This document shows, piece after piece, positions 6,655 through 57,996 of a stretch of 64,000 nucleotides of DNA. Position 1 is the stretch's first letter; the number at the start of each line of letters is the position of its first letter. The notes under the pieces were generated by a model that worked only from the letters and a program-made list of their open reading frames with translations, made no database searches and had not been told where the DNA came from. The DNA comes from an uncultured bacterium (GTDB lineage: Bacteria > Patescibacteriota > Saccharimonadia > UBA4664), in contig CAVUEQ010000001.1 of the NCBI GenBank assembly GCA_963740635.1, forward strand, positions 740,840-804,839, read 5' to 3'. The translations under genes were made by a program, and so were the position numbers.

Positions 6655-6692
6655 CTTACGGGCGCCGGTTTTTCGCGAGGAGCGTGATGGCA

Positions 6693-6828
6693 ACTATACT
6701 CCAAAAGGGTATATCTACCATTATCACACAAATGTTGTAGTCTTTTTGGCTTGGGTGAGCCATTATTTCTACCTTACTCGAACACAAATGCCCATTACCG
6801 TCAAAGGTATACTCTTTGGGAGTATAGT
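6693..6828. mobile_element. MITE-like 136-bp AT-rich element with about 22-24 bp terminal inverted repeats (copy 1), upstream of kbl.
   Basis: Left end ACTATACTCCAAAAGGGTATATCTA. Right end GGTATACTCTTTGGGAGTATAGT, which is the reverse complement of the left. The internal motif TGTAGTCTTTTTGGCTTGGGTGAGCCATTA is shared with copy 2. Confidence 0.6.
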
Positions 6829-6905: not shown

Positions 6906-8093
6906 ATGAGCACAAAAGATAATTTCTACAAGCAACTAGCCGAAGCCGAGGCCGGCTTCAAGCCGCCGCGGGTGATTACCAGCGGGCAGGGCGCCTACTT
7001 AAAGATAGACGGCCAGCCGCGGCTGAACTTTTGCTCGAGCCATTACCTGGGGTTCGCGGTGGACGGGCGGCTGAAGCAGGCGGCCAAAGCGGCCGTCGAC
7101 AAGTACGGCATTGGCACCGGCTACCGCACGCTGGCCGGGACGCACGAGTTGCACCTGGAGCTGGAGCGGGCCATCGCGGAGTTTAAGGGCGCCGAGGCGG
7201 CAGTGGTATTTTCGAGCGCCTACGCGGCCAACGCGGCGGCCATCCAGACGATTATCGGCAAGGAAGACATTGTGATTTCGGATGAGCTGAACCACGCCTC
7301 CATCATCGATGCGGTGCGGCTGAGCGGGGTGAAAAATAAGTTCATATACGGCCACGGGGATATGGCGGCGCTGGAGGCGAAGCTTCAAGAGGTGGCAGAG
7401 CTGCGCAAAACGCCCAAGGCCAACGGCGAGCCGCCGCTGGTGCTGATAGTGACCGACGGCGTTTTTTCGATGGACGGCGACCTGGCGCCCCTGCCCCGGA
7501 TCGTGGAGCTCGCCAAGCGCTACGACGCGCTGACCATGGTGGACGACGCCCACGGCGAGGGCGTGCTGGGCCGTGGCGGCCGCGGGATCGTGGACCACTT
7601 TGGCCTGACCGGAGAGGTGGACATCGAGGTGGGGAGCTTGAGCAAGGCGTTTTCGGTGATGGGCGGATTTATTGCGGGCCGGCGCGAGTTGGTTAATTTC
7701 TACAACGCGAGGGCCCGGCAGCGGCTGTTTTCGGTGGCGCTGACCATCCCCGACACGGCGGCGGCCCTGGAGGCGGTGCGGATTTTGCAGGAGTCGCAGG
7801 ATTTGGTGCAGAAATTGTGGGACAACGTGGATTATTTGCGCGAAGGGTTTAAGGAGCTGGGATTTGATATCGGCCACTCCGAGACGCCGATCATCCCGGT
7901 GATGCTGGGCGACGAAAAAACGGCGGTGGAAATGAGCGCCAAGATGTTTGCAGACGGGGTGTTTGCGACGCCGATTGTGTTTCCGATGGTAGCCAAGGGC
8001 AAGGCGCGGATACGGGTGATCGTGTCGGCGAGCTTCAGCCGCGAGGACTGCGATAAGGGGTTGGCGGCGTTCAAGAAGGCGCGGGGGGATTAA
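6906..8093 (+). CDS. kbl: 2-amino-3-ketobutyrate CoA ligase (glycine C-acetyltransferase), class II PLP aminotransferase. Assigned as Kbl rather than BioF because tdh is adjacent.
   Basis: 395 aa. PLP-lysine context GSLSKAF. Convergent with a threonine dehydrogenase-like Zn-ADH gene. Confidence 0.8.
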   Translation: MSTKDNFYKQLAEAEAGFKPPRVITSGQGAYLKIDGQPRLNFCSSHYLGFAVDGRLKQAAKAAVDKYGIGTGYRTLAGTHELHLELERAIAEFKGAEAAVVFSSAYAANAAAIQTIIGKEDIVISDELNHASIIDAVRLSGVKNKFIYGHGDMAALEAKLQEVAELRKTPKANGEPPLVLIVTDGVFSMDGDLAPLPRIVELAKRYDALTMVDDAHGEGVLGRGGRGIVDHFGLTGEVDIEVGSLSKAFSVMGGFIAGRRELVNFYNARARQRLFSVALTIPDTAAALEAVRILQESQDLVQKLWDNVDYLREGFKELGFDIGHSETPIIPVMLGDEKTAVEMSAKMFADGVFATPIVFPMVAKGKARIRVIVSASFSREDCDKGLAAFKKARGD

Positions 8094-8170: not shown

Positions 8171-8306
8171 ACTATACTCCAAAAGAGTATATCTATCTTT
8201 CCGGCGAATATATTGTGTAGTTTTTGCTTAAGTGAAGCCATAAACGCGATGTTGCAATATTACATGTTTAGAGCAATGTCAAAACTATACCCTTTTGGAG
8301 TATAGT
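8171..8306. mobile_element. MITE-like 136-bp element copy 2, between kbl and tdh. Same TIRs and same length as copy 1.
   Basis: Left ACTATACTCCAAAAGAGTATATCTA. Right AAAACTATACCCTTTTGGAGTATAGTTG, the reverse complement of the left. Internal TGTAGTTTTTGCTTAAGTGAAGCCATAA. Confidence 0.6.
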
Positions 8307-8346
8307 TGTGTGTATAAGTTTCCGCGGGGAGTGGCGGCGTCCGGTT

Positions 8347-11733: not shown

Positions 11734-12688
11734 GGGCGGTCTCCGGTTGGCCGGCTTTGGTGCCGGCGTTTTCCGAATAGATGGCCACAAAAATATCGTC
11801 GAGTGAGGCCTGCTGCTCTTCGAACTGGGTAACGGACAGGCCACGGTGGCCGGCCAGCGCCTCAAAAACCTGCTGGGTGGTCACGCCGTCGCGCATGGAC
11901 AGAGTGGCGGTGCCGTGGTCCTGGGCGGCCACTTCGTAGAGGGCGGTGTGCGCCGGCAGTTTCCCACCAAAGCGCAGGGCGATGATTTTGGAGCCAAACT
12001 GGTTGCGGATATCGTTGACGGTGCCGTAGAGCCGGCGCTTGCCGTCCTTGAGCAGCGCCACCCGGTCGCACAAGCGCTCCACTTCCTCCATTTGGTGAGT
12101 CACCAGCACAGTCGTGGTGCCCTGCTTCGACAACTCCTCGAGCATGTCCACGAGCAGCCGGCGGTTGACGGGGTCGAAGCCTTTGGTGGGCTCGTCGAGG
12201 ATGAGCAGCTCCGGATTGTTCATGATGGTGACGCCGAGCTGGATTTTCTGCTGCTCGCCGCCGGAGAGGCGGTCCATGCGCGCGCCGGCCTTGTCGGGCA
12301 GGCCCACGCGCTCCAGATATTCAGCCGACCATTTGGCGACGGCCGCCGGGTTCATGCCCTTGAGGCGGCCGAAGTAAGTCATGCAGCTAGACACGGTTTC
12401 TTTTTGGTACAGCCCGCGCTCTTCGGGCAGGTATCCAAGGATGCCGGCCATTTTGGTGGTGTATTTCCGGCCGTTTACGAGCAGGGTGCCGCGGGTAGGT
12501 TGGTAAATGCCGAGTAATGCCCGCAGGGTGGTTGTCTTGCCGGAGCCATTTGAGCCCAAAAAACCGAAGGTTTCGCCCGGCTTCACGTCAAACGACAAGT
12601 CCTCAATGACGGTCTTGTCGCCAAAGCGCATCTGGAAATTGCGGATATCGATCGGGAGGGGATGCGGCATATCGGATTTATCATACAC
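11726..12688 (-). CDS. ABC transporter ATP-binding protein.
   Basis: Walker A GSNGSGKTTT, signature LSGGEQQK, Walker B LILDEPT. Confidence 0.9.
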   Translation of the reverse strand: MYDKSDMPHPLPIDIRNFQMRFGDKTVIEDLSFDVKPGETFGFLGSNGSGKTTTLRALLGIYQPTRGTLLVNGRKYTTKMAGILGYLPEERGLYQKETVSSCMTYFGRLKGMNPAAVAKWSAEYLERVGLPDKAGARMDRLSGGEQQKIQLGVTIMNNPELLILDEPTKGFDPVNRRLLVDMLEELSKQGTTTVLVTHQMEEVERLCDRVALLKDGKRRLYGTVNDIRNQFGSKIIALRFGGKLPAHTALYEVAAQDHGTATLSMRDGVTTQQVFEALAGHRGLSVTQFEEQQASLDDIFVAIYSENAGTKAGQPETAHA

Positions 12689-12699
12689 CCGCGTGCCGA

Positions 12700-13014
12700 T
12701 TATGCGGCGGCCGATTGCTGATGTGAGTTAGGACTGGCCATGTGACCCCGCAACAGACGCTGAGTCCGCAGTGACCTGCGATCCACCCGGTCCAGACGCT
12801 GACTTTCGCCCCGTGCATCACCCTCAAGCATTTCGCGCAATTGGCGGATGTCTGTCTTGAGCTCCGTCTTCATGTCCGCCATTTCGGTCCGCAATTCTGT
12901 CCGTAGAGCGGTCATTTCTGACCGCAATGAACTTTCGGATGCACCAACCGCGCCCTCGACGACGTCTGCTACGATTCCTCGGATTTGGTTGAGGTCATTA
13001 GGCGTAAGCGACAT
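12700..13014 (-). CDS. Hypothetical coiled-coil protein, immediately upstream of the ABC operon.
   Basis: 104 aa with heptad-like charged repeats (TALRTELRTEMADMKTELKTDIRQLREMLEG). No homology recognised. Confidence 0.4.
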   Translation of the reverse strand: MSLTPNDLNQIRGIVADVVEGAVGASESSLRSEMTALRTELRTEMADMKTELKTDIRQLREMLEGDARGESQRLDRVDRRSLRTQRLLRGHMASPNSHQQSAAA

Positions 13015-13128
13015 GCTAGTTCCTGTTACTTATCCAGTGTAAACTCCACCTCGGGTACATTATAGCGAACAAAATGCGAACAGACAAAATTAACGCCTCG
13101 CCTTGAAGCGTTTGGGAGGACCTCCAGG

Positions 13129-13368
13129 CTAGTGAATCGCGTGTAGCAAACGCAATATGCCGATGGTCTCATTGCCGGCAAGGTGCCTCGCGATTGTGAT
13201 GTCAGTCAAACCCTGGGGATCCTGTCCGATGAGATAGACTGGCGCGTAGCCCTTTTTGGCGGCCGTGGGGCTGATCCAGAATCGCGCGAATACATTGTCT
13301 CGTCCTCGAAAAAGCGAGCGAAACAGGCTTACTTTGGCTTTGTTGGTCGCCTCGTGCTCCCCCACCAA
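13129..13368 (-). CDS. Short hypothetical ORF, possibly a gene remnant, within a lower-GC islet.
   Basis: 79-aa ORF abutting the Fic gene. No recognisable domain. Confidence 0.25.
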   Translation of the reverse strand: MVGEHEATNKAKVSLFRSLFRGRDNVFARFWISPTAAKKGYAPVYLIGQDPQGLTDITIARHLAGNETIGILRLLHAIH

Positions 13369-13372
13369 ACTC

Positions 13373-14470
13373 TTATCCTAGCCGCCGCTTGATCTCTGCC
13401 AGGGTTTGACGCTGGTCAGTCTGCAGGCGACGGATTTCTTTGGCCCGACCGATCATGGTGAGTTCATAGAGTTGGTATCCGCCGGGGGTATGCGAGGCCA
13501 CCTCAAGCAGGCCTTCACGGGTCCAGTGGCGAAGAGTCGGGACGGTCTCCTCGGTATCCTTAGCCAATTCGCCAATCTTGAGGAGTTTGGCGGCACCGGC
13601 ACCGGGGCTTGCAAGAGATGGCCCGCCGACTGATTCAAGGTAAATGTCGAGAGAGCGATCGATGGAAGCATAGATGCAATCATAATACCCGTCCATCGGG
13701 CCGCCGGTCTGGGCGGTTTCAAGTGAAGTAATATAGGTGCTCCGATCCTCTGGACGGAGGATGGCAGCGGGGTAGCCTGTCTGCATGAGGAGTAGATTCA
13801 TGAGGAGTCTGGCGGTTCGCCCGTTACCGTCGACAAACGGGTGGATACTGACTAGCCTGAAGTGAGCATCAGCCGCGATCTTTGCGGGATGATCAGAGTT
13901 CTCTGATTTCAGCCATGTGGCAAATGCAGCCATGAGGTCTGGTACCTTTAGGTAGTTTGGCATTACGGCCCGGCTACCGGCGATTCGCACCGGGACGCTT
14001 CTGTAGCGCCCGGCGTTTACGTCAGCAGTGCCGCCTAGGATTCTCTCATGTAACGAAAGTATGAGGTCCTCTGTGATATCTGTGCGATCCCCACCGACAA
14101 ATTGCTCGATATAGTCAAATGCCCGAGCATGGCCAGCAGCTTCCATAACTTCTTTGAGCGTTTTGCCCTCAATGCCAAGCCCCTTGTCTACCACCAGTGC
14201 CGTTTCCTGGCGCGTTAGGGTGTTGCCCTCGATGGCGTTCGAAGTGTAGGTCAGCTCAACACGAAACCACTCCCGAAGATTATTGATCAGCTCGGGGGCG
14301 AGGGGCTGAAACTGATCCAGCGATTGTTTCTTGCGACTGATGTTGGCTAGAATTGTATACATAGTATGCAGTGTAACGTCACGCTTTACGGTTGTCAAGA
14401 TGCCCACATACTCCGTGAAGTTTGCGTCAATGTCTGCCTTGCCCGACGAACGAACCGTCGGAGGTCCCAC
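13373..14470 (-). CDS. Fic/Doc family protein (class II Fic with intramolecular inhibitory motif) fused to a C-terminal MerR-like HTH.
   Basis: Canonical Fic motif HPFVDGNGRTARLL. Inhibitory [S/T]xxxE[G/N] motif TSNAIEGN near the N-terminus. C-terminal LKIGELAKDTEETVPTLRHWTREGLL...LAEIKRRL resembles a MerR HTH. Locus is about 55% GC. Confidence 0.8.
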   Translation of the reverse strand: MGPPTVRSSGKADIDANFTEYVGILTTVKRDVTLHTMYTILANISRKKQSLDQFQPLAPELINNLREWFRVELTYTSNAIEGNTLTRQETALVVDKGLGIEGKTLKEVMEAAGHARAFDYIEQFVGGDRTDITEDLILSLHERILGGTADVNAGRYRSVPVRIAGSRAVMPNYLKVPDLMAAFATWLKSENSDHPAKIAADAHFRLVSIHPFVDGNGRTARLLMNLLLMQTGYPAAILRPEDRSTYITSLETAQTGGPMDGYYDCIYASIDRSLDIYLESVGGPSLASPGAGAAKLLKIGELAKDTEETVPTLRHWTREGLLEVASHTPGGYQLYELTMIGRAKEIRRLQTDQRQTLAEIKRRLG

Positions 14471-14622: not shown

Positions 14623-14699
14623 TGGTGGAGCTGGAGGGATTCGAACCCTCGACCTCTGCAATGCGAATGCAGCGCTCTAGCCAGCTGAGCTACAGCCCC
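14623..14699 (-). tRNA. tRNA-Ala (anticodon CGC), CCA encoded.
   Basis: Reverse complement GGGGCTGTAGCTCAGCTGGCTAGAGCGCTGCATTCGCATTGCAGAGGTCGAGGGTTCGAATCCCTCCAGCTCCACCA. Anticodon loop TT-CGC-AT. G3:U70. Confidence 0.85.
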
Positions 14700-14736
14700 A
14701 CGGACTGATACATTGTGCCTGTTTGAGCGGTGGGCG

Positions 14737-18363: not shown

Positions 18364-18500
18364 TGTGCGGGCAACCCCGCGGCTGGTTGAGCGCTGAAGC
18401 GCTGACTGGCCGCGGGACCCACGGAATTATTTGACCTGCCTTCTAATGGGTAGGTCATTTTGTTCTCCCAAGTGGGTACTAATTTCGGTACGTATGGCTT

Positions 18501-18570
18501 TTTTTATATCATATATGGGTTCAGCGCGATACCATATATGGTATAGAAAGTCAGATACATCGTAAGGGAT
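18501..18570. repeat. Conserved about 70-bp AT-rich palindromic intergenic element, copy 1 of 2 (family with the CCATATATGG palindrome).
   Basis: TTTTTATATCATATATGGGTTCAGCGCGATACCATATATGGTATAGAAAGTCAGATACATCGTAAGGGA. Copy 2 at about 40496-40567 shares about 80% identity. Contains the perfect palindrome TACCATATATGGTA. Confidence 0.6.
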
Positions 18571-35158: not shown

Positions 35159-36340
35159 TTACAGCTCGCGCAGGCGCTTGACGATTCCGGGGAGAACCTT
35201 GATGACCTGGCCGATTGACCCTGATGTGGCCGACCGCCCGAGGGTGAGGCGCAGGCTGCACTGGGCCTCGGCGGAGGTGCGGCCAATGGCCAGCAGCACG
35301 TGCGACGGGTCGAGGTTGCCGGTGGAGCAGGCCGAGCCGGTGGAGGCTTGGATACCGGCGTTGTCGAGGTAGAGCACCATGGCCTCGCCCTCCGCGCCGG
35401 GAATGGTGAGGTTGAGGTTGTTAGGCAGGCGGCGGCGCGGATCGCCGTTGAGGCGCGCATCCGGGACGGCGGCGGTGACGGCGGCGGCCAGCTGGTCGCG
35501 CAGGGCTCTGAGGCGGCGGGATTCGGCCTCGCGGCCGGCGGCGGCCAGCTCCAGGGCACGGGCCAGGCCGGCGATACCGGCCACATTTTCGGTGCCGCTG
35601 CGCCGGCCGCGCTCCTGGCCGCCGCCGTACACCAGGGGCTCGAGGCTGGTGCCATGCCGCACGTACAGCGCGCCGGTGCCTTTGGGGCCGTAGATCTTGG
35701 AGCCGCCGATGGTCAGCAAATCCACGCCGAGGCGCGTGACGTGCAGGTCGAGGTAGCCGGCGGCCTGCACGGCGTCGGTGTGGAGGTAGAGCGGCAGGGT
35801 GATGCCGCGGCGGTCGCGGTCGGTGCGGACCCGCGCGACTAGCTTGCCAATGTCGGCGATGGGCTGGATGGTGCCGATTTCGTTGTTGGCCATCATGACC
35901 GACAGGAGGACCGTTTGGTCGGTGATGGCGCTCTCAATTTCAGCCGGGTCGACGATGCCGCTAGGTTTAACGCTGACCGCAGTTGCCTCGTGTCCCTCAC
36001 GCTTTAATGGCTCCACGCAGCCCAGAACGGCATCATGCTCGATAGCGGTGGTAACCCAATGCGCCCCCGGGTGGGCCCGCAGCACCCCCTGCACCGCCAG
36101 GTTGTCGCCCTCGGTGCCGCCCGAGGTGAACACGATTTCGGTCGGTTTGGCGCCAAGAATGCCCGCGATGGAGCGCCGGGCCGCTTCGACCGCCCCACGG
36201 GTTTCGCGCGCCGCGGCATAAAGGCTCGAGGGGTTGGCAAAATCCCGCTCGAGGTATGGGCGCATAGCCTCAAGCACCGCCGCGTCGAGCGGGGTAGCGG
36301 CTGCGTGGTCGAGATAAATTGGCTGCAAAGGTTGGCCCAT
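35159..36340 (-). CDS. Cysteine desulfurase (class V aminotransferase, IscS/NifS-like).
   Basis: TSGGTEGDN, HTDAVQAAG, PLP-Lys in GGSKIYGPKG, C-terminal active Cys in STGSACS. Confidence 0.85.
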   Translation of the reverse strand: MGQPLQPIYLDHAAATPLDAAVLEAMRPYLERDFANPSSLYAAARETRGAVEAARRSIAGILGAKPTEIVFTSGGTEGDNLAVQGVLRAHPGAHWVTTAIEHDAVLGCVEPLKREGHEATAVSVKPSGIVDPAEIESAITDQTVLLSVMMANNEIGTIQPIADIGKLVARVRTDRDRRGITLPLYLHTDAVQAAGYLDLHVTRLGVDLLTIGGSKIYGPKGTGALYVRHGTSLEPLVYGGGQERGRRSGTENVAGIAGLARALELAAAGREAESRRLRALRDQLAAAVTAAVPDARLNGDPRRRLPNNLNLTIPGAEGEAMVLYLDNAGIQASTGSACSTGNLDPSHVLLAIGRTSAEAQCSLRLTLGRSATSGSIGQVIKVLPGIVKRLREL

Positions 36341-36382
36341 GGCCGCTAATTATGCCAGCTTACAAGCAGCTTTTCAATGAGC

Positions 36383-36478
36383 GAGGTCCGACCTTCACCG
36401 TGTTACTGGAATCCCGGTTGTGTTTGAGAACTACTTGAGCGTAAGCGGGATTCCGGTGTTTCGCTCAAGGTCGGACCT
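36383..36478. repeat. REP-like palindromic doublet (two inverted copies) at the 3' side of the RAYT gene.
   Basis: GAGGTCCGACCTTCACCGTGTTACTGGAATCCCGG (36383-36417) and the inverted GGGATTCCGGTGTTTCGCTCAAGGTCGGACCT (36447-36478). Confidence 0.65.
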
Positions 36479-37013
36479 TGGCCCTTGACAGGTACTCCAG
36501 GTAGTCGCATGGCGTATCAAATAGTTGTAATACCGGCCGGGGGTCGACAAAGCTAGAAGCGCTGTCTGGCTGGAGGTAAACCTGCAGGCTGGAATGTTGG
36601 TGTTGGCGCCAGCCGAGTCCTGCGCGCTCCGGGTTTCGGTGGATATAGCGCGACTCCTCCATAAGGTGGGCAGCCCCAGCCACCCGGCTTGCCTTGTATT
36701 TTCCCTGAAACAATGGCCCAATACGCAAGTGGCGCTGGTTGAAGTAGATAACATACCCGGTAATTAACCTCTGGAACCATCGGCCCATTGCCCCGGTTTC
36801 AGTTTGGCTTAGTAATACGTGGAAGTGGTTCGGCATGAGGCAAAAAGCGAGTAAAGTAACGCTCGGCTCCCGCTCGAGGGCTTGGTGCATCTGCAACTTG
36901 AAGCGCTGGTGGTCATGGTGATCGAGGAAGATACGCCTGCGCTCAACCCCCCGGTTGTATGCATGATAAATGCCTTGGGGTAGGTCTTCTTTGATCGTGT
37001 GGCGAGACGGCAT
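36465..37013 (-). mobile_element. REP-associated tyrosine transposase (RAYT) / IS200-like Y1 HUH transposase TnpA. Start taken at internal MPSRHTIKED...
   Basis: HUH motif MPNHFHVLL. Catalytic Tyr context SRYIHRNP. N-terminal MPSRHTIKEDLPQGIYHAYNRG resembles the IS200 TnpA start. Flanked by REP-like repeats. Confidence 0.8.
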
Positions 37014-37045
37014 GTTTGACAGCCTAGCACCTGGTCCGTCGACCG

Positions 37046-37080
37046 GCAAGGTCCGACCTTCACCGTGTTACTGGAATCCC
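37046..37080. repeat. REP-like sequence, third copy, 5' of the RAYT gene.
   Basis: AAGGTCCGACCTTCACCGTGTTACTGGAATCCCGG is identical over 31 nt to the 36383-36417 copy. Confidence 0.7.
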
Positions 37081-37089
37081 GGCTATGGT

Positions 37090-37641
37090 TCAGGGTTTGG
37101 TGAGGGTGTCCAAGATGACGGCACCGGAGATTTCAGTGAGGGCGGTTCCGGGAATGAGGAGCTTGGAGCGCCTGAGGCCGCCGCCAATGACCAAGCGGGA
37201 GACTTCGAGCAGGCTCTGGTCGATGAGGAGGGGCCATCCGCCGGGCAGCCCGAGGATCGTGATGCTGCCGTACTCCTGGCCGCTGGCATCCACGGCAAAC
37301 TCGCGGCTGGCCATCGAGGTTTGGCGGGCGCCGAGCCGGCGGCGGATGAGGCCGTTGATGTCGGCGCGGGCGTGAGCAGGGACGAGACAGCCGGCGGGAG
37401 TGATGGCGCCGGCGCGGCGGCCCTCGACGATGAGGCAGTTGGCAGTCTCGGCGGGGTCAACCTGAAATTCTGCACAGAATGCGTCGGTGTCACTGAATTT
37501 GGGGTCGATTTCGCAGACCAGGATCTGAGAAACGAGCGTATGGCCCGACCATTGCTCGAGCGCGGTTTTGACGGGACCGGCCAGCAGGTCGGGGCGGTCG
37601 AGGGCGGAAGTGAATAGCAGGGTGCCGAAGGTTAGTTTCAT
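37090..37641 (-). CDS. YbaK/ProX-like aminoacyl-tRNA deacylase domain protein.
   Basis: 183 aa. YbaK-like segment CLIVEGRRAGAITPAGCLVPAHARADINGLI. Confidence 0.6.
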   Translation of the reverse strand: MKLTFGTLLFTSALDRPDLLAGPVKTALEQWSGHTLVSQILVCEIDPKFSDTDAFCAEFQVDPAETANCLIVEGRRAGAITPAGCLVPAHARADINGLIRRRLGARQTSMASREFAVDASGQEYGSITILGLPGGWPLLIDQSLLEVSRLVIGGGLRRSKLLIPGTALTEISGAVILDTLTKP

Positions 37642-40421: not shown

Positions 40422-40495
40422 CGTAAGGGTATCGTTAACTGCGTTATCGTAGCATAAATCTTATCCGGGCATCGACCCTTCGTCATGTATGTGTG

Positions 40496-40567
40496 TTTTT
40501 ATATCATATATGGGTTCCCGCAGATACCATATAAGGTATAAAAAACGTGATACACCTCGAAGGAGGC
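40496..40567. repeat. Conserved about 70-bp AT-rich palindromic element, copy 2 (upstream of metG).
   Basis: TTTTTATATCATATATGGGTTCCCGCAGATACCATATAAGGTATAAAAAACGTGATACACCTCGAAGGAGG. Confidence 0.6.
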
Positions 40568-42138: not shown

Positions 42139-42185
42139 ATAAGAGGAGTGTAACATTAAATTTTTTTCGGGCTTATGCCCTGCAT

Positions 42186-42260
42186 GGTGTATGTGCCAAA
42201 TTGGGAGATAGGTTTCAAAATTGAGGCTAAATTTTCGAGCGATGTCCCAATTTGGCACAT
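42186..42260. repeat. Palindromic about 75-bp element with about 19-bp TIRs (ATGTGCCAAATTGGGAGAT / ATGTCCCAATTTGGCACAT), copy B, upstream of rsmA.
   Basis: ggtgtatgtgccaaattgggagataggtttcaaaattgaggctaaattttcgagcgatgtcccaatttggcacat. Related to 26115-26207 in inverted orientation. Confidence 0.6.
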
Positions 42261-43295
42261 TCAGGCTGCTGGGAGTGGGCCAGCGGGAGGAGTGGAAGCC
42301 GGAGTTGGAACCGCAGAAGTTGGTGGGGCCGGTGGAGCCGATGGGGCCGGGGCAAAAGGCGGGGCGGCGGGGGCGGGTGGGGCCGGGGGAGCCGCGGGCG
42401 CAGGCGGGGCCGGCGGCGGCGCAGGTGGGGCCGGCGGCGCGGCACCCATAGCCAGCAGCTGCGCCAAGGCGGTGCGGGTGCGGGCTACCGTGCCGGCAAT
42501 GTCGCCGCCGGCCTTGTTGATTTGCCAGGCCAACAGCGCCAGCATTTTGTAAGCCGCATAGACCTTAATGGTTTCAGGTTTACTGACCTGGAGCATGTGG
42601 TTCATGATTTGGGCGCTGGCTTCAGGTTGGTCCGCCAGCGAAAACCACAGCCCCACCAGGTCGATCAGCCGGTCGCCATAGCCGACCTGGTCCCAGTCGA
42701 GGACCGCGGAGATATTTTGCCCCTGGGTGAGCACCTGGTCGATGGTGAAGTCGCCGTGGACGAGGTCGCCCTTTTCCAACATCAGGTTGTCGAGGCCCAT
42801 CACCATGCCCTCGATTTGGGCGGCCAGCGAACTGGTTTCGGGCCCAAAGAGCATCAGCATGCGGACCAGGCTCCCCTCCCCTTTGAAGACGGCGCTTTGG
42901 ATGTACCAGCCCCAGTCTTGGCCCTGGACTTCGGAAATGGCCTTGCCTTTTTGGAGCTCGATGAGGTTAATGAGAGCCGTGACTTGCTCCGGAGTGGGCT
43001 TTTCGGTGGCCAGCCCGGGGAGTTCGTCCTCGAGCCAAAAGGTGCCGCGGTCGGTGGCGTCGATGTAGTAATAGGCGGGTACGGGGTAACCAAGCGGCCG
43101 GAGGTGCCCGGTGGCGGCTTTGGCGCGTTCTATCTGGGCTTTCCACATGGGATTATTGCTAGTTTTGAGTACGGCGCGAGCGCCGTCGGTGTTGGTAACG
43201 CGAAAGGCATGTTCGCCACCCGAAAACTGCGCCGTGAGCGTGTAGTTGGTGCCCTTGGCGGCGTTGATGTATTCGAGGGCTGAATTAGGGTCCAT
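42261..43295 (-). CDS. Aminoglycoside phosphotransferase (APH)/choline kinase-like protein kinase-fold enzyme with a C-terminal Pro/Ala-rich tail.
   Basis: Catalytic HGD (DLVHGDF) and DxD (LDWDQVGYGD) motifs. Tail APPAPPAPPPAPPAPAAPPAPPAP. Confidence 0.65.
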   Translation of the reverse strand: MDPNSALEYINAAKGTNYTLTAQFSGGEHAFRVTNTDGARAVLKTSNNPMWKAQIERAKAATGHLRPLGYPVPAYYYIDATDRGTFWLEDELPGLATEKPTPEQVTALINLIELQKGKAISEVQGQDWGWYIQSAVFKGEGSLVRMLMLFGPETSSLAAQIEGMVMGLDNLMLEKGDLVHGDFTIDQVLTQGQNISAVLDWDQVGYGDRLIDLVGLWFSLADQPEASAQIMNHMLQVSKPETIKVYAAYKMLALLAWQINKAGGDIAGTVARTRTALAQLLAMGAAPPAPPAPPPAPPAPAAPPAPPAPAAPPFAPAPSAPPAPPTSAVPTPASTPPAGPLPAA

Positions 43296-56274: not shown

Positions 56275-57996
56275 TCACTTTACGTCTACGCAGTATGGAG
56301 CGGCGGCGCCGTCGAGCAGGGTGTAGAGCGCTAGGTAGCGGGTGCCGGTGGCGCCAGGCGTGTGGGCGGGGCCGGTGCAGGAGCCGCCGGGCTGGTACTG
56401 GATTTGGCCGGCCGCGGTGGGGGCTGTCTTGGCTACCACGTAGGGCTGGCCGGTGCCGGGATCAGTTGCGCTAACTGAGACGGCCGGCGGGTTGACGGGG
56501 TAGAAACCGTTTTTGCTAATGGCCTTGTAGGCCGCGGCGAAGGCGGCCAGGTCTGATTGGCGCTGGGCATTGGCCGCGGCCACATCCGGGGTGGGGACGG
56601 GAGTGGGGGTGGCGTCTGAGCCGAGCACGCTCGAGCCGGTGTCGCTGGTTTTGGGCGTGGGAGTAGGCGCCGGCGAGGGGCTCGACGGCTTGGCGATAAT
56701 CATGAACACCGCGCCGCCGCCGATGAGCAATAGCACGGCAAACGTGGCAATTAACGCGAGCTGGCGCCCGCGCGAGAGGGGCTGAGGGTGCGTGACCGGC
56801 TGCACCGGGGGCTTGGCGGGCTGCGGCGCCGACGAGGCCAGCGGGGCCGGGGGCGGGGTTCCGGGGGCCGGTGCGGACGGTGCCGCTGGAGTAGCCGGCG
56901 GTGAGACCTCGGGGGTGGCGGGCTCGGATGGCGGGGCGGTCAACGTGGTGGCTTCGGGAGTGTCGGTCTGGGCCTCGGGGGCTGCGGGAGGCTCTGGGGC
57001 CGCCGGCGTGTCCGGAGCGGGCGGCGCGGCATCCTCCGACTCAGCTGGTTTTTCGGGTTCGTCCTCCCGTTCAGCGGCTGGGTCTTCGGACCCGGCAGTT
57101 CCGTCAGGTTTATCTTCATCTTGGCCGGCCGGAACGGGCTTATCCTCTTCTTCGGCGGCAGGACTGTCTGCGTCTGGCTTCTCAGCGCCCCCGGCCGGAT
57201 TCGTGTCTTCTTCGGCCGGCTCGGTGTCTTCTTCGGCCGGCTCCGCATCCTTATCGGACTCCTCCGGCTCCTTGGCATCCGTCTCGGGCGTGGCATCGGG
57301 ACCGGCGGTGGTTTCGGCGCTGGCAGCGTCAGCAATTGCGGCCACGGCGGCCACGGCCGGGCTGGAAGACAAGGCCGTTTGCGGCTCGAGAGTTTCGTTG
57401 GCCTCGGGCTCGGGCTCGGCCTTGGCTGCGCCTTGCAGCTCGGCGATCGACTCTTGCAAGACCTTTTCGGGCGGCTCGTCTACATCTGTGACCACCGCCG
57501 CCGGTTCGGCTGCGGCTTCGGCCACGGGTGTTTTGTCGGCCTCAGGCGGTTCGTCAGCTTCGGGCTTGTCAGTTTCGGGCTTGCCGGTCTTCAGCAGTTT
57601 GTCATCACCATGCGTTTTGATCACGGCCGCGGGCTTGTCATCATCTTCTTTGGATTCGTTTTCATCGACCTTTTCGGCCTCGGGCTCATCGGATTTATCG
57701 GCCTCATCGGGCTTATCGACCTTCTCGACCTTCTCGGCCTCATCGGGTTTCTCGGGCTCATCAGGTTTCAGTGGCTCTTCTGGTTCGTCGGATTTTGCCG
57801 GTTCGTCAGCTGTTGCGGGTTCCGGGTCCGGCTTCGGCGCATCGTGCCCGTGCAGGATCGGGGGCATGGCGTCTTCAATTTTCTGCTTGTCAGCGTCGCT
57901 CAGGATTTCGACATGACCGCATTCCATGCATAACCAGCCGGCTTTCGACTGGACCATTTCGTTGCCGCAATTTGAGCACTTCATGGAATCAAGCAT
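56275..57996 (-). CDS. Zinc-ribbon / about 350-aa acidic Pro/Glu/Asp-rich disordered region / TM / pseudopilin-like C-terminal domain (paralog 2).
   Basis: MKCSNCGNEMVQSKAGWLCMECGH. TM LALIATFAVLLLIGGGAVFMII. C-terminal AQRQSDLAAFAAAYKAISKNGFYP...ATDPGTGQPYVV. Confidence 0.7.
   Translation of the reverse strand: MLDSMKCSNCGNEMVQSKAGWLCMECGHVEILSDADKQKIEDAMPPILHGHDAPKPDPEPATADEPAKSDEPEEPLKPDEPEKPDEAEKVEKVDKPDEADKSDEPEAEKVDENESKEDDDKPAAVIKTHGDDKLLKTGKPETDKPEADEPPEADKTPVAEAAAEPAAVVTDVDEPPEKVLQESIAELQGAAKAEPEPEANETLEPQTALSSSPAVAAVAAIADAASAETTAGPDATPETDAKEPEESDKDAEPAEEDTEPAEEDTNPAGGAEKPDADSPAAEEEDKPVPAGQDEDKPDGTAGSEDPAAEREDEPEKPAESEDAAPPAPDTPAAPEPPAAPEAQTDTPEATTLTAPPSEPATPEVSPPATPAAPSAPAPGTPPPAPLASSAPQPAKPPVQPVTHPQPLSRGRQLALIATFAVLLLIGGGAVFMIIAKPSSPSPAPTPTPKTSDTGSSVLGSDATPTPVPTPDVAAANAQRQSDLAAFAAAYKAISKNGFYPVNPPAVSVSATDPGTGQPYVVAKTAPTAAGQIQYQPGGSCTGPAHTPGATGTRYLALYTLLDGAAAPYCVDVK

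Follow-up and report, generated by a model that had tools for sequence, protein, structure and literature searches.

The DNA analysed here is a 64-kb stretch (hereafter the window) of the 829-kb contig CAVUEQ010000001.1, which belongs to a Saccharibacteria-like genome of the candidate phyla radiation (CPR). It was found to contain, as one copy, a gene for a small Y1 transposase resembling the RAYTs, the tyrosine transposases associated with repetitive extragenic palindromic (REP) sequences, and this gene is bracketed by three copies of a repeat (Table 1). The gene product carries the motifs MPNHFHVLL (HUH) and SRYIHRNP (catalytic Tyr), and the Y1_Tnp domain (PF01797; 34 bits against a cutoff of 23) was the only Pfam domain identified in it. 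The residues concerned are H63 and H65 of the HUH motif (N62-H63-F64-H65), F102-Q103 (LFQG), the stretch S121-R122-Y123-I124-H125-x-N127-P128 and S141-S142, with those of the NHFH, FQ, Tyr and SS motifs being invariant or near-invariant across 26 aligned homologues. A TTG codon at 37049 was rejected as the start of the gene, as the homologues in the alignment all begin with MPS, which places the start at the ATG at 37013. Named homologues were from Candidatus Saccharibacteria, Saccharimonadales and the Patescibacteria group, which makes a GC-rich Saccharibacteria genome the most likely source; several homologues are already labelled 'REP element-mobilizing transposase RayT' by automated JGI annotation.

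The Tyr motif reads YIHRNP in the window, YIHLNP being the family consensus, and is of the Y---NP type that defines class 2 (TnpA-REP-like) of these enzymes, IS200 transposases having Y---Q instead (Quentin et al. 2018, PMC6006769, Table 1). Comparison by eye with that table showed agreement with the combination of NH[YF]H, FQ (or W[EQ]), Y[IV]HLNP and an SS proximal tail, one of two signatures given for subclass 2.1 (PMC6006769). Subclass 2.1, which equals group 1 of Bertels, was equated by the same authors with the TIRYTs of Di Nocera et al. 2013 (PMC3733652), these being RAYT-like genes that are flanked by terminal inverted repeats in place of REPs. Judged by its motifs, the window protein is a putative class-2 TnpA-Y1 that is RAYT-like and closest to subclass 2.1 (TIRYT). 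Structural prediction was in line with this assignment. An AF2 model of the protein (pLDDT 91) gave as its top PDB fold match 4er8_A, the E. coli RAYT bound to REP (E 8e-7, TM 0.66/0.72, 159 columns), and TnpA chains of IS608, ISDra2 and IS200 were matched over mostly 105-115 columns (up to 132) with a TMq of 0.42-0.50. Furthermore, REP_Tyr_transpos was the best and only NCBIfam match of the protein. An earlier note on this DNA had called the gene a Y1 transposase of the REP-associated type, and the Tyr motif, the 4ER8 fold and the NCBIfam model all agree with it. The catalytic HUH/Tyr core is intact, in a protein of predicted RAYT-like fold which, judging from the substitution rates given below, is under strong purifying selection.

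The sequence AGGTCCGACCTTCACCGTGTTACTGGAATCCCGG was found as exact 34-nt copies at 36384-36417 and 37049-37082, both on the plus strand and in direct orientation on the two sides of the gene. Similarity between these copies (type A) reaches 48 nt at 90% identity (36381-36428 and 37046-37093). No further copy was present in the window at up to three mismatches, and there were no matches in 100 dinucleotide shuffles. A third, inverted copy (type B) was identified at 36446-36478 using the gapped pattern AGGTCCGACCTT, 12 free nt, GGAATCCCG; it has both of these blocks in common with the other two copies and differs from them in the middle 12 nt. This copy and the end of the gene overlap in the final four codons and the stop codon (AAG GTC CGA CCT TGA, encoding KVRP*). 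Together with the type A copy at the 3' side it makes up an inverted repeat of 46 nt (74% complementary, arms 23 nt apart) that is predicted to fold as a hairpin of approximately 95 nt, with a foot stem of 12 bp and a distal stem of 9 bp. The calculated fold energy was -25.8 kcal/mol for DNA (z -4.4) and -48.8 kcal/mol for RNA (z -5.1), and no shuffle equalled it. The core of the repeat, AGGTCCGACCT, is an odd-centred palindrome with the 13-nt dyad AAGGT-NNN-ACCTT. The direct copies, the inverted partial copy with its hairpin-capable 3' doublet and the palindromic core had all been described in the earlier note, and each was confirmed.

Table 1. Features of the RAYT-like locus, with positions in the window
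Feature	Position	Strand	Remarks
Promoter-like site TTGAAA, 17-nt spacer, TG-CATAAT	36349-36377	-	Right after the doublet; 10/12 consensus positions
Second type A copy, right arm of the 3' REPIN-like doublet	36382-36417	-	Direct orientation relative to the 5' copy
Loop/spacer of the 3' doublet	36418-36445	-	~59% identical to L001
3' repeat, type B, left hairpin arm	36446-36479	-	Gene strand AAGGTCCGACCTTGAGCGAAACACCGGAATCCCG; inverted relative to the 5' copy
RAYT/TIRYT-like class-2 TnpA-Y1 gene (putative)	36465-37013	-	182 aa + TGA; Pfam Y1_Tnp
Spacer, 5' repeat to start codon	37014-37047	-	Ends CTGTCAAAC-ATG
5' flanking repeat, type A	37048-37082	-	Gene strand CCGGGATTCCAGTAACACGGTGAAGGTCGGACCTT; exact 34-nt match to 36384-36417

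Comparison of the locus with loci on other contigs (designated by L numbers) revealed a flanking inverted repeat of 15-27 nt at ten of ten loci. Gene-sized control placements within the window gave a mean of 10.7 nt (standard deviation 1.3, maximum 17); a length of 15 nt was attained in 2 of the 281 placements. In the window, the inverted repeat consists of a 16-nt core and 9 distal nt. The inverted repeats around the gene in L009, L011 and L017 are 26-27 nt long, have no more than one mismatch and resemble TTCGCTCAAG[G/A]TCGGA[C/G]CTTGA, the left arm lying 30-35 nt before the ATG and the right arm overlapping or directly following the stop codon; both terminal inverted repeats of these three loci are of type B. 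Such a position of the right copy was usual among the relatives examined. The inverted pair of L012, 23 nt long and with no more than one mismatch, belongs to yet another variant. Full doublets stand on either side of the gene in L016, and short doublets of CAGGTCSGACCTG at its two ends in L013. In L014 a perfect hairpin of 25 nt, CTGTACAAGGT-TGA-ACCTTGTACAG, whose loop contains the stop codon, is present four times, and in L015 the homologue is flanked by AAAGGTCCGTCCTTT and its complement. The type A unit of the window recurs in relatives: L004 has it solo, and in L001 and L016 it forms one arm of a doublet. The dyad core AAGGT-NNN-ACCTT was common to the gene-flanking repeats of every relative examined.

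The same core flanks distant homologues (37-42% identity) in the unrelated contexts of L013, L014 and L015, which indicates an association with the gene and not with its neighbourhood. This bears on the idea that the repeats are unrelated to the gene, being either sites at which the host regulates an adjacent operon or the target-site or att duplication of a past integration. A dyad-symmetric core of 13 bp does resemble an operator for a dimeric regulator, and 34-nt direct repeats around a unit of 665 bp are what a duplication could look like. Nevertheless, the core accompanies homologous genes through at least five genomic contexts that are unrelated, the conserved C-terminal residues (A/G)K(V/L)R(P/S) of the protein are encoded within the right copy, and the repeats of the orthologues are inverted, not direct. 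We therefore give this explanation hardly any credence. An operator for the cysteine desulfurase operon was rejected on account of the motif accompanying the RAYT-like gene into unrelated contexts, as was a target-site duplication on account of the inverted orientation in orthologues.

The repeats also differ from their surroundings in conservation. Identity between the window and L001 is 94% for the arms, against approximately 59% for the loop and 52% for the third codon positions of the gene. Compensatory changes (C-G to T-A and T-A to C-G) were identified in the doublet stems of L009 and L016, and left and right copies were seen to change together, with AAGGTCGGACCTT becoming AAGATCGGAGCTT in L009 and L017. 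On this comparison the repeat arms are constrained. The 5' copy of L001, orthologous to that of the window, has decayed to the 13-nt core, whereas the type A copies of the window are identical. Conservation was also observed next to the repeats. The 5' type A repeat begins 7 nt past the stop codon of the tRNA_edit gene that precedes it, its other end lying 34 nt ahead of the ATG, and in the spacer that follows it a CTGTCAA(A/G)xATG box before the start codon is kept in L001, L009 and L011, the CTGTCAA(A/G) box pairing with an upstream TTGACA(G/A) in L009 and L011. On the other side, the promoter-like block that precedes the cysteine desulfurase gene (35159-36340, minus strand) is 93% conserved with L001. 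A search with Rfam over 36000-37500 returned nothing meaningful.

The immediate neighbours of the gene encode a tRNA_edit protein and the cysteine desulfurase (Aminotran_5). The gene order methionyl-tRNA synthetase (MetRS), acetyltransferase, TatD, RAYT-like gene, Aminotran_5 was found to be kept around an orthologue of 80% identity (L001-L003), and MetRS ... TatD - gene - Aminotran_5 also around orthologues of 65% (L009/L010), 58% (L011) and 56% (L012) identity; the window departs from the orthologous order only by an additional tRNA_edit gene, which separates TatD from the RAYT-like gene. The ratio of nonsynonymous to synonymous substitution (dN/dS) between the window and L001 was 0.06, with synonymous sites saturated (proportion of synonymous differences, pS, 0.70), and other orthologues for which dS could be estimated gave a dN/dS of 0.09-0.14 at a pS of at least 0.70. 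The fixed slot, the saturated dS and the low dN/dS together indicate that the gene has been vertically inherited and selected and is not a recently arrived insertion sequence. Vertical inheritance under selection matches the behaviour of RAYTs described by Bertels et al. 2017 (PMC5581495).

These observations bear on whether the locus could be an ordinary autonomous insertion sequence of the IS200/IS605 type, with the repeats as its subterminal left- and right-end hairpins. Such an element would account for the Pfam Y1_Tnp domain, for two identical repeats lying in direct orientation at both ends, as at the ends of IS608, and for the sequence-profile matches in the PDB, which were to ISDra2 TnpA only. 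The TnpA proteins of IS608 and ISDra2 also share with the window protein the HUH/Y1 fold and the catalytic residues, and their elements have related sequences at the ends. However, the Tyr motif is Y---NP and not the Y---Q of IS200 subclass 1.1 (PMC6006769, Table 1), and the 182-aa protein continues at its C-terminus into a tail like that of 4ER8, where IS200/IS605 elements have a short, core-only TnpA, several near-identical copies and frequently a tnpB partner. No tnpB was found at the locus, where the neighbours are the tRNA_edit and Aminotran_5 genes. The gene shows no multicopy behaviour in the window, where one copy is present, and it occupies a fixed orthologous locus, in synteny at saturated dS with a dN/dS near 0.1. 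Furthermore, the terminal repeats of the orthologues are inverted rather than direct. We consider an IS200/IS605 element to be highly improbable.

The position of the gene is nonetheless not the same in all relatives. Near relatives of the gene were identified in two other slots, namely between CAP and mnmA (L016, and a second copy in L009) and between SMC and a hypothetical gene (L017), and the distant homologues of L013, L014 and L015 lie in unrelated contexts. This suggests that the unit has relocated occasionally, at least three chromosomal sites being occupied among the relatives. L009 offers an example. In approximately 180 kb of close relatives, only a single doublet is not directly beside a RAYT-like gene (L009 15858-15945). 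This doublet and a second one, with uninterrupted stems of 17-18 bp (approximately 21 bp including pairs beyond a small internal loop), bound a block of 1.5 kb in L009 (15858-17384) that holds a NUDIX gene, an ORF of 66 aa and the second RAYT-like gene. The block sits between a CAP-domain gene and mnmA, genes that are adjacent in L011 and L012, and it looks like a composite insertion with cargo.

Copies away from the gene were few. A scan of genome contigs with AGGTCCGACCTT-N12-GRAATCCCG matched a sole other contig, that of a Saccharibacteria metagenome-assembled genome (L004), which has a solo type A copy after obg and no RAYT match on the contig. A looser pattern scan of metagenomes yielded four loci (L005-L008), none of them a close relative; the match in L007 lies inside an apparent coding sequence, with no RAYT match. 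On another Saccharibacteria-type contig, the variant core AAAGGTCCGTCCTTT was found seven times in 20 kb (L015 5829-10715), all of them intergenic, with one doublet and with two copies flanking the RAYT homologue; by its distribution this appears to be a dispersed, REP-like family. The lineage would thus be able to spread such repeats, and in the genome of the window the repeat family appears to be at best low-copy.

The module could alternatively be fully domesticated and immobile, with a host function unrelated to repeat spread and with repeats that act in cis only, as an autoregulatory site, as a hairpin that ends or insulates transcription of the RAYT-like gene before the promoter of the cysteine desulfurase gene, or as an mRNA stabiliser. 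This would agree with a locus that is fixed over deep divergence and under strong purifying selection, with arms 94% conserved beside a conserved promoter-like site, with the lack of dispersed copies in 64 kb and with the precise placement of the doublet after the stop codon and before the next promoter. At least occasional copying is indicated, however, by the solo copy of L004, by the doublet and duplicated gene of L009 and by the three chromosomal sites, and the two type A copies of the window are identical where the orthologous 5' copy of L001 is degenerate. Regarding the termination of transcription, a terminator scan of the gene strand detected nothing resembling an intrinsic terminator, and the hairpin is not followed by a T-tract on that strand, for which reason the doublet was no longer read as a simple terminator. 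Full domestication is, on balance, unlikely. A more limited role in cis of the 3' doublet, lying between the stop codon and the promoter-like site of the cysteine desulfurase gene, is plausible and is compatible with the reading that is set out next.

The locus is likely to be of the REPtron/TIRtron type, consisting of a class-2 TnpA-Y1 gene, present as one copy and passed on vertically, and of the repeats cognate to it. Among REPtrons, that of E. coli and the REPIN-RAYT systems of Pseudomonas (PMC3116915, PMC5581495) likewise have a single-copy vertical gene bracketed by inverted cognate repeats, the inverted doublets fold into long hairpins as REPINs do, and the TnpA-REP of the E. coli REP and bacterial interspersed mosaic element (BIME) system (4ER8; PMC3479197, PMC8266576) is both the best structural match and of the class-2 Y---NP type. 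The likeness to TIRYTs and TIRtrons is closer in several respects. Here too a RAYT-like Y1 gene is flanked by non-REP terminal inverted repeats that may overlap its 3' end, few or no copies of the repeat family appear to lie elsewhere in the genome, and the NHFH, FQ and YIH(R/L)NP motifs occur with an SS proximal tail. TIRtrons differ from the window locus in that their proteins have a median length of 238 aa, and in the GGGGWSAS consensus of many, not all, of their repeats, which is missing from the TCGCTCAAGGTCGGACCTTGA-like terminal inverted repeat of the window with its AAGGT-NNN-ACCTT dyad. In addition, the 5' copy of the window is another repeat variant, a REPIN-like doublet is present, and the host belongs to the CPR.

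A number of results weigh against the assignment. A nhmmer profile built from 12 copies found nothing in the window beyond the three copies of the locus, so that within 64 kb the repeat is unique to this place, a circumstance that the earlier note had itself named as one that would refute its proposal; E. coli and Pseudomonas, by comparison, have hundreds of copies per genome. Zero copies in 63 kb, with uniform spread over the 829-kb contig, corresponds to fewer than approximately 38 copies (95% confidence). The repeat ends do not have the GT[AG]G foot, which serves as guide tetranucleotide in REPtrons, and canonical REP anatomy is not present; a single unit does not form a stable palindrome and folds only to a mini-hairpin of 5-6 bp with a 3-nt loop, stable hairpins arising from doublets only. 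At the level of the protein, the NCBIfam model REP_Tyr_transpos (NF047646) scored 45.2 bits, under its equivalog cutoff of 80, so that the profile comparison proposed in the earlier note was positive for Y1_Tnp and fell short for the RAYT model. A single-sequence search of the PDB with the protein (phmmer) gave no match, and a profile search of the PDB gave weak matches to ISDra2 TnpA only (E 0.0075) and did not reach 4ER8, the similarity to which was not detectable by HMMER. Furthermore, the distal C-terminal domain of subclass 2.1, which is HTH-like, is absent from the window protein of 182 aa. Lastly, the concerted change of left and right copies could stem from gene conversion and not from recognition by the enzyme.

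Taken with these points, the REPtron/TIRtron-type assignment amounts to a locus that would function as REPtrons do and that is best classed, within class-2 TnpA-Y1, as TIRtron-like. The RAYT-REP signature claimed in the earlier note accordingly holds as regards the cognate flanking repeats and the REPIN-like 3' doublet, and does not hold as regards the foot and a self-folding palindrome. A classical REPtron, as the note had named it, is a poorer description than the subclass 2.1 TIRYT or 'TIRtron', which is better fitted by the motifs and by the perfect terminal inverted repeats of the orthologues.

By analogy with E. coli TnpA-REP (PMC3479197, PMC8266576), the enzyme would bind the repeats when these are folded in single-stranded DNA, for example in the lagging-strand template. 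It would then nick the strand beside the repeat through Tyr123, forming a 5'-phosphotyrosyl intermediate at the HUH-bound metal, before the strands are rejoined. Activity directed at the repeats would be rare and tightly limited. Such low activity would explain why the type A copies are identical here while the 5' copy of L001 has decayed, the sporadic appearance of new copies (the solo copy of L004, the extra doublet and second gene of L009, and the dispersed copies of L015), and the moves of the unit as a whole, which occupies at least three chromosomal sites in relatives. With a repeat family that appears low-copy here, the system would resemble a resident module, quiescent for the most part, and not a REP family in the course of proliferation.

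Systems of this type are already known. The statement of the earlier note that they are poorly documented outside Proteobacteria is outdated, as Cyanobacteria, Bacteroidetes, Acidobacteria and Planctomycetes are covered in PMC6006769 and PMC3733652. In the literature searched, no description of a RAYT/REP system was found for Saccharibacteria or for Patescibacteria/CPR, the matches to RAYT with Saccharibacteria, which have neither term in title or abstract, being judged incidental by title. One preprint mentions no more than a match to KEGG K07491 in an archaeon. The type is therefore not new, and no published description of it was found in the Saccharibacteria/CPR lineage.

Palindromic doublets of a related kind were observed in an AT-rich metagenome organism. 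In L008 (6811-6848 and 7392-7428; the same in L005 and L006), doublets of 37-38 nt, consisting of AAGGTCGGACCTT, 11-12 nt and then AGGTCCGACCTT, lie in frame inside fmt and def, and have as their core the same 13-nt dyad as the window repeat. They add the peptides ERSDLFKFLRSDLKE and ERRSDLESSKRSDLIP to the products of fmt (formyltransferase) and def (peptide deformylase). Both proteins were confirmed with Pfam, with extra residues relative to the profiles, and the pattern resembles the palindromic elements of Rickettsia. The same organism was found to encode a distant RAYT homologue (32% identity; L006 12778-13290, minus strand, within 12600-13400), which has direct copies of another hairpin-capable repeat, GTTGTGAGGTCTTGCCTAACAAC, to either side of it.

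It is a tentative possibility that a CPR-specific RAYT/TIRYT lineage has co-evolved with the 13-bp dyad. Such a lineage would be held at a fixed, constrained locus in genomes of less than 1 Mb and yet be mobile across the CPR, including by in-frame insertion into essential genes (fmt and def of L008) in the manner of the Rickettsia palindromic elements. If true, this retention at a fixed locus under strong constraint would imply a host-beneficial processing of single-stranded DNA and not a selfish function.

Other repeats were noted in the window, apart from the RAYT-like locus. A perfect 23-nt inverted repeat (CAACTATACTCCAAAAGGGTATA and its complement; 6691-6713 and 8286-8308) lies around an ORF of 395 aa (6906-8093, plus strand) that has the look of a class I/II aminotransferase, from sequence alone. 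A 76-nt AT-rich block, present at 18484-18559 and 40479-40554 with 78% identity, contains the palindrome ATACCATAT(A/-)TGGTAT; its second copy is situated just upstream of the MetRS start (40421, minus strand), and the block may be a shared promoter or operator. An imperfect inverted repeat of 45 nt (73% complementary, arms 6 nt apart) was found at 42178-42273. Long tandem repeats with a period of approximately 390 nt (680-1960) and a repeat tract with 9-nt periodicity (57670-57790) are probably repetitive protein-coding sequence. Two 78-nt segments of 81% identity (2754-2831 and 14623-14700) resemble tRNA genes of the minus strand by their TGGTGGAGC...GGATTCGAACCC ends.

RAYT/REP systems are the main example of domesticated transposases that persist by vertical inheritance. 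The locus described here extends the known range of RAYT/REP-type systems to the CPR. For annotation, it means that the gene should not be read as an active insertion sequence or as evidence of a recent horizontal transfer. A RAYT-like gene under strong purifying selection in the ultra-reduced genome of an episymbiont, with a handful of cognate repeats, represents a minimal case of such a system, and this would allow the function of the enzyme to be studied apart from the proliferation of repeats.

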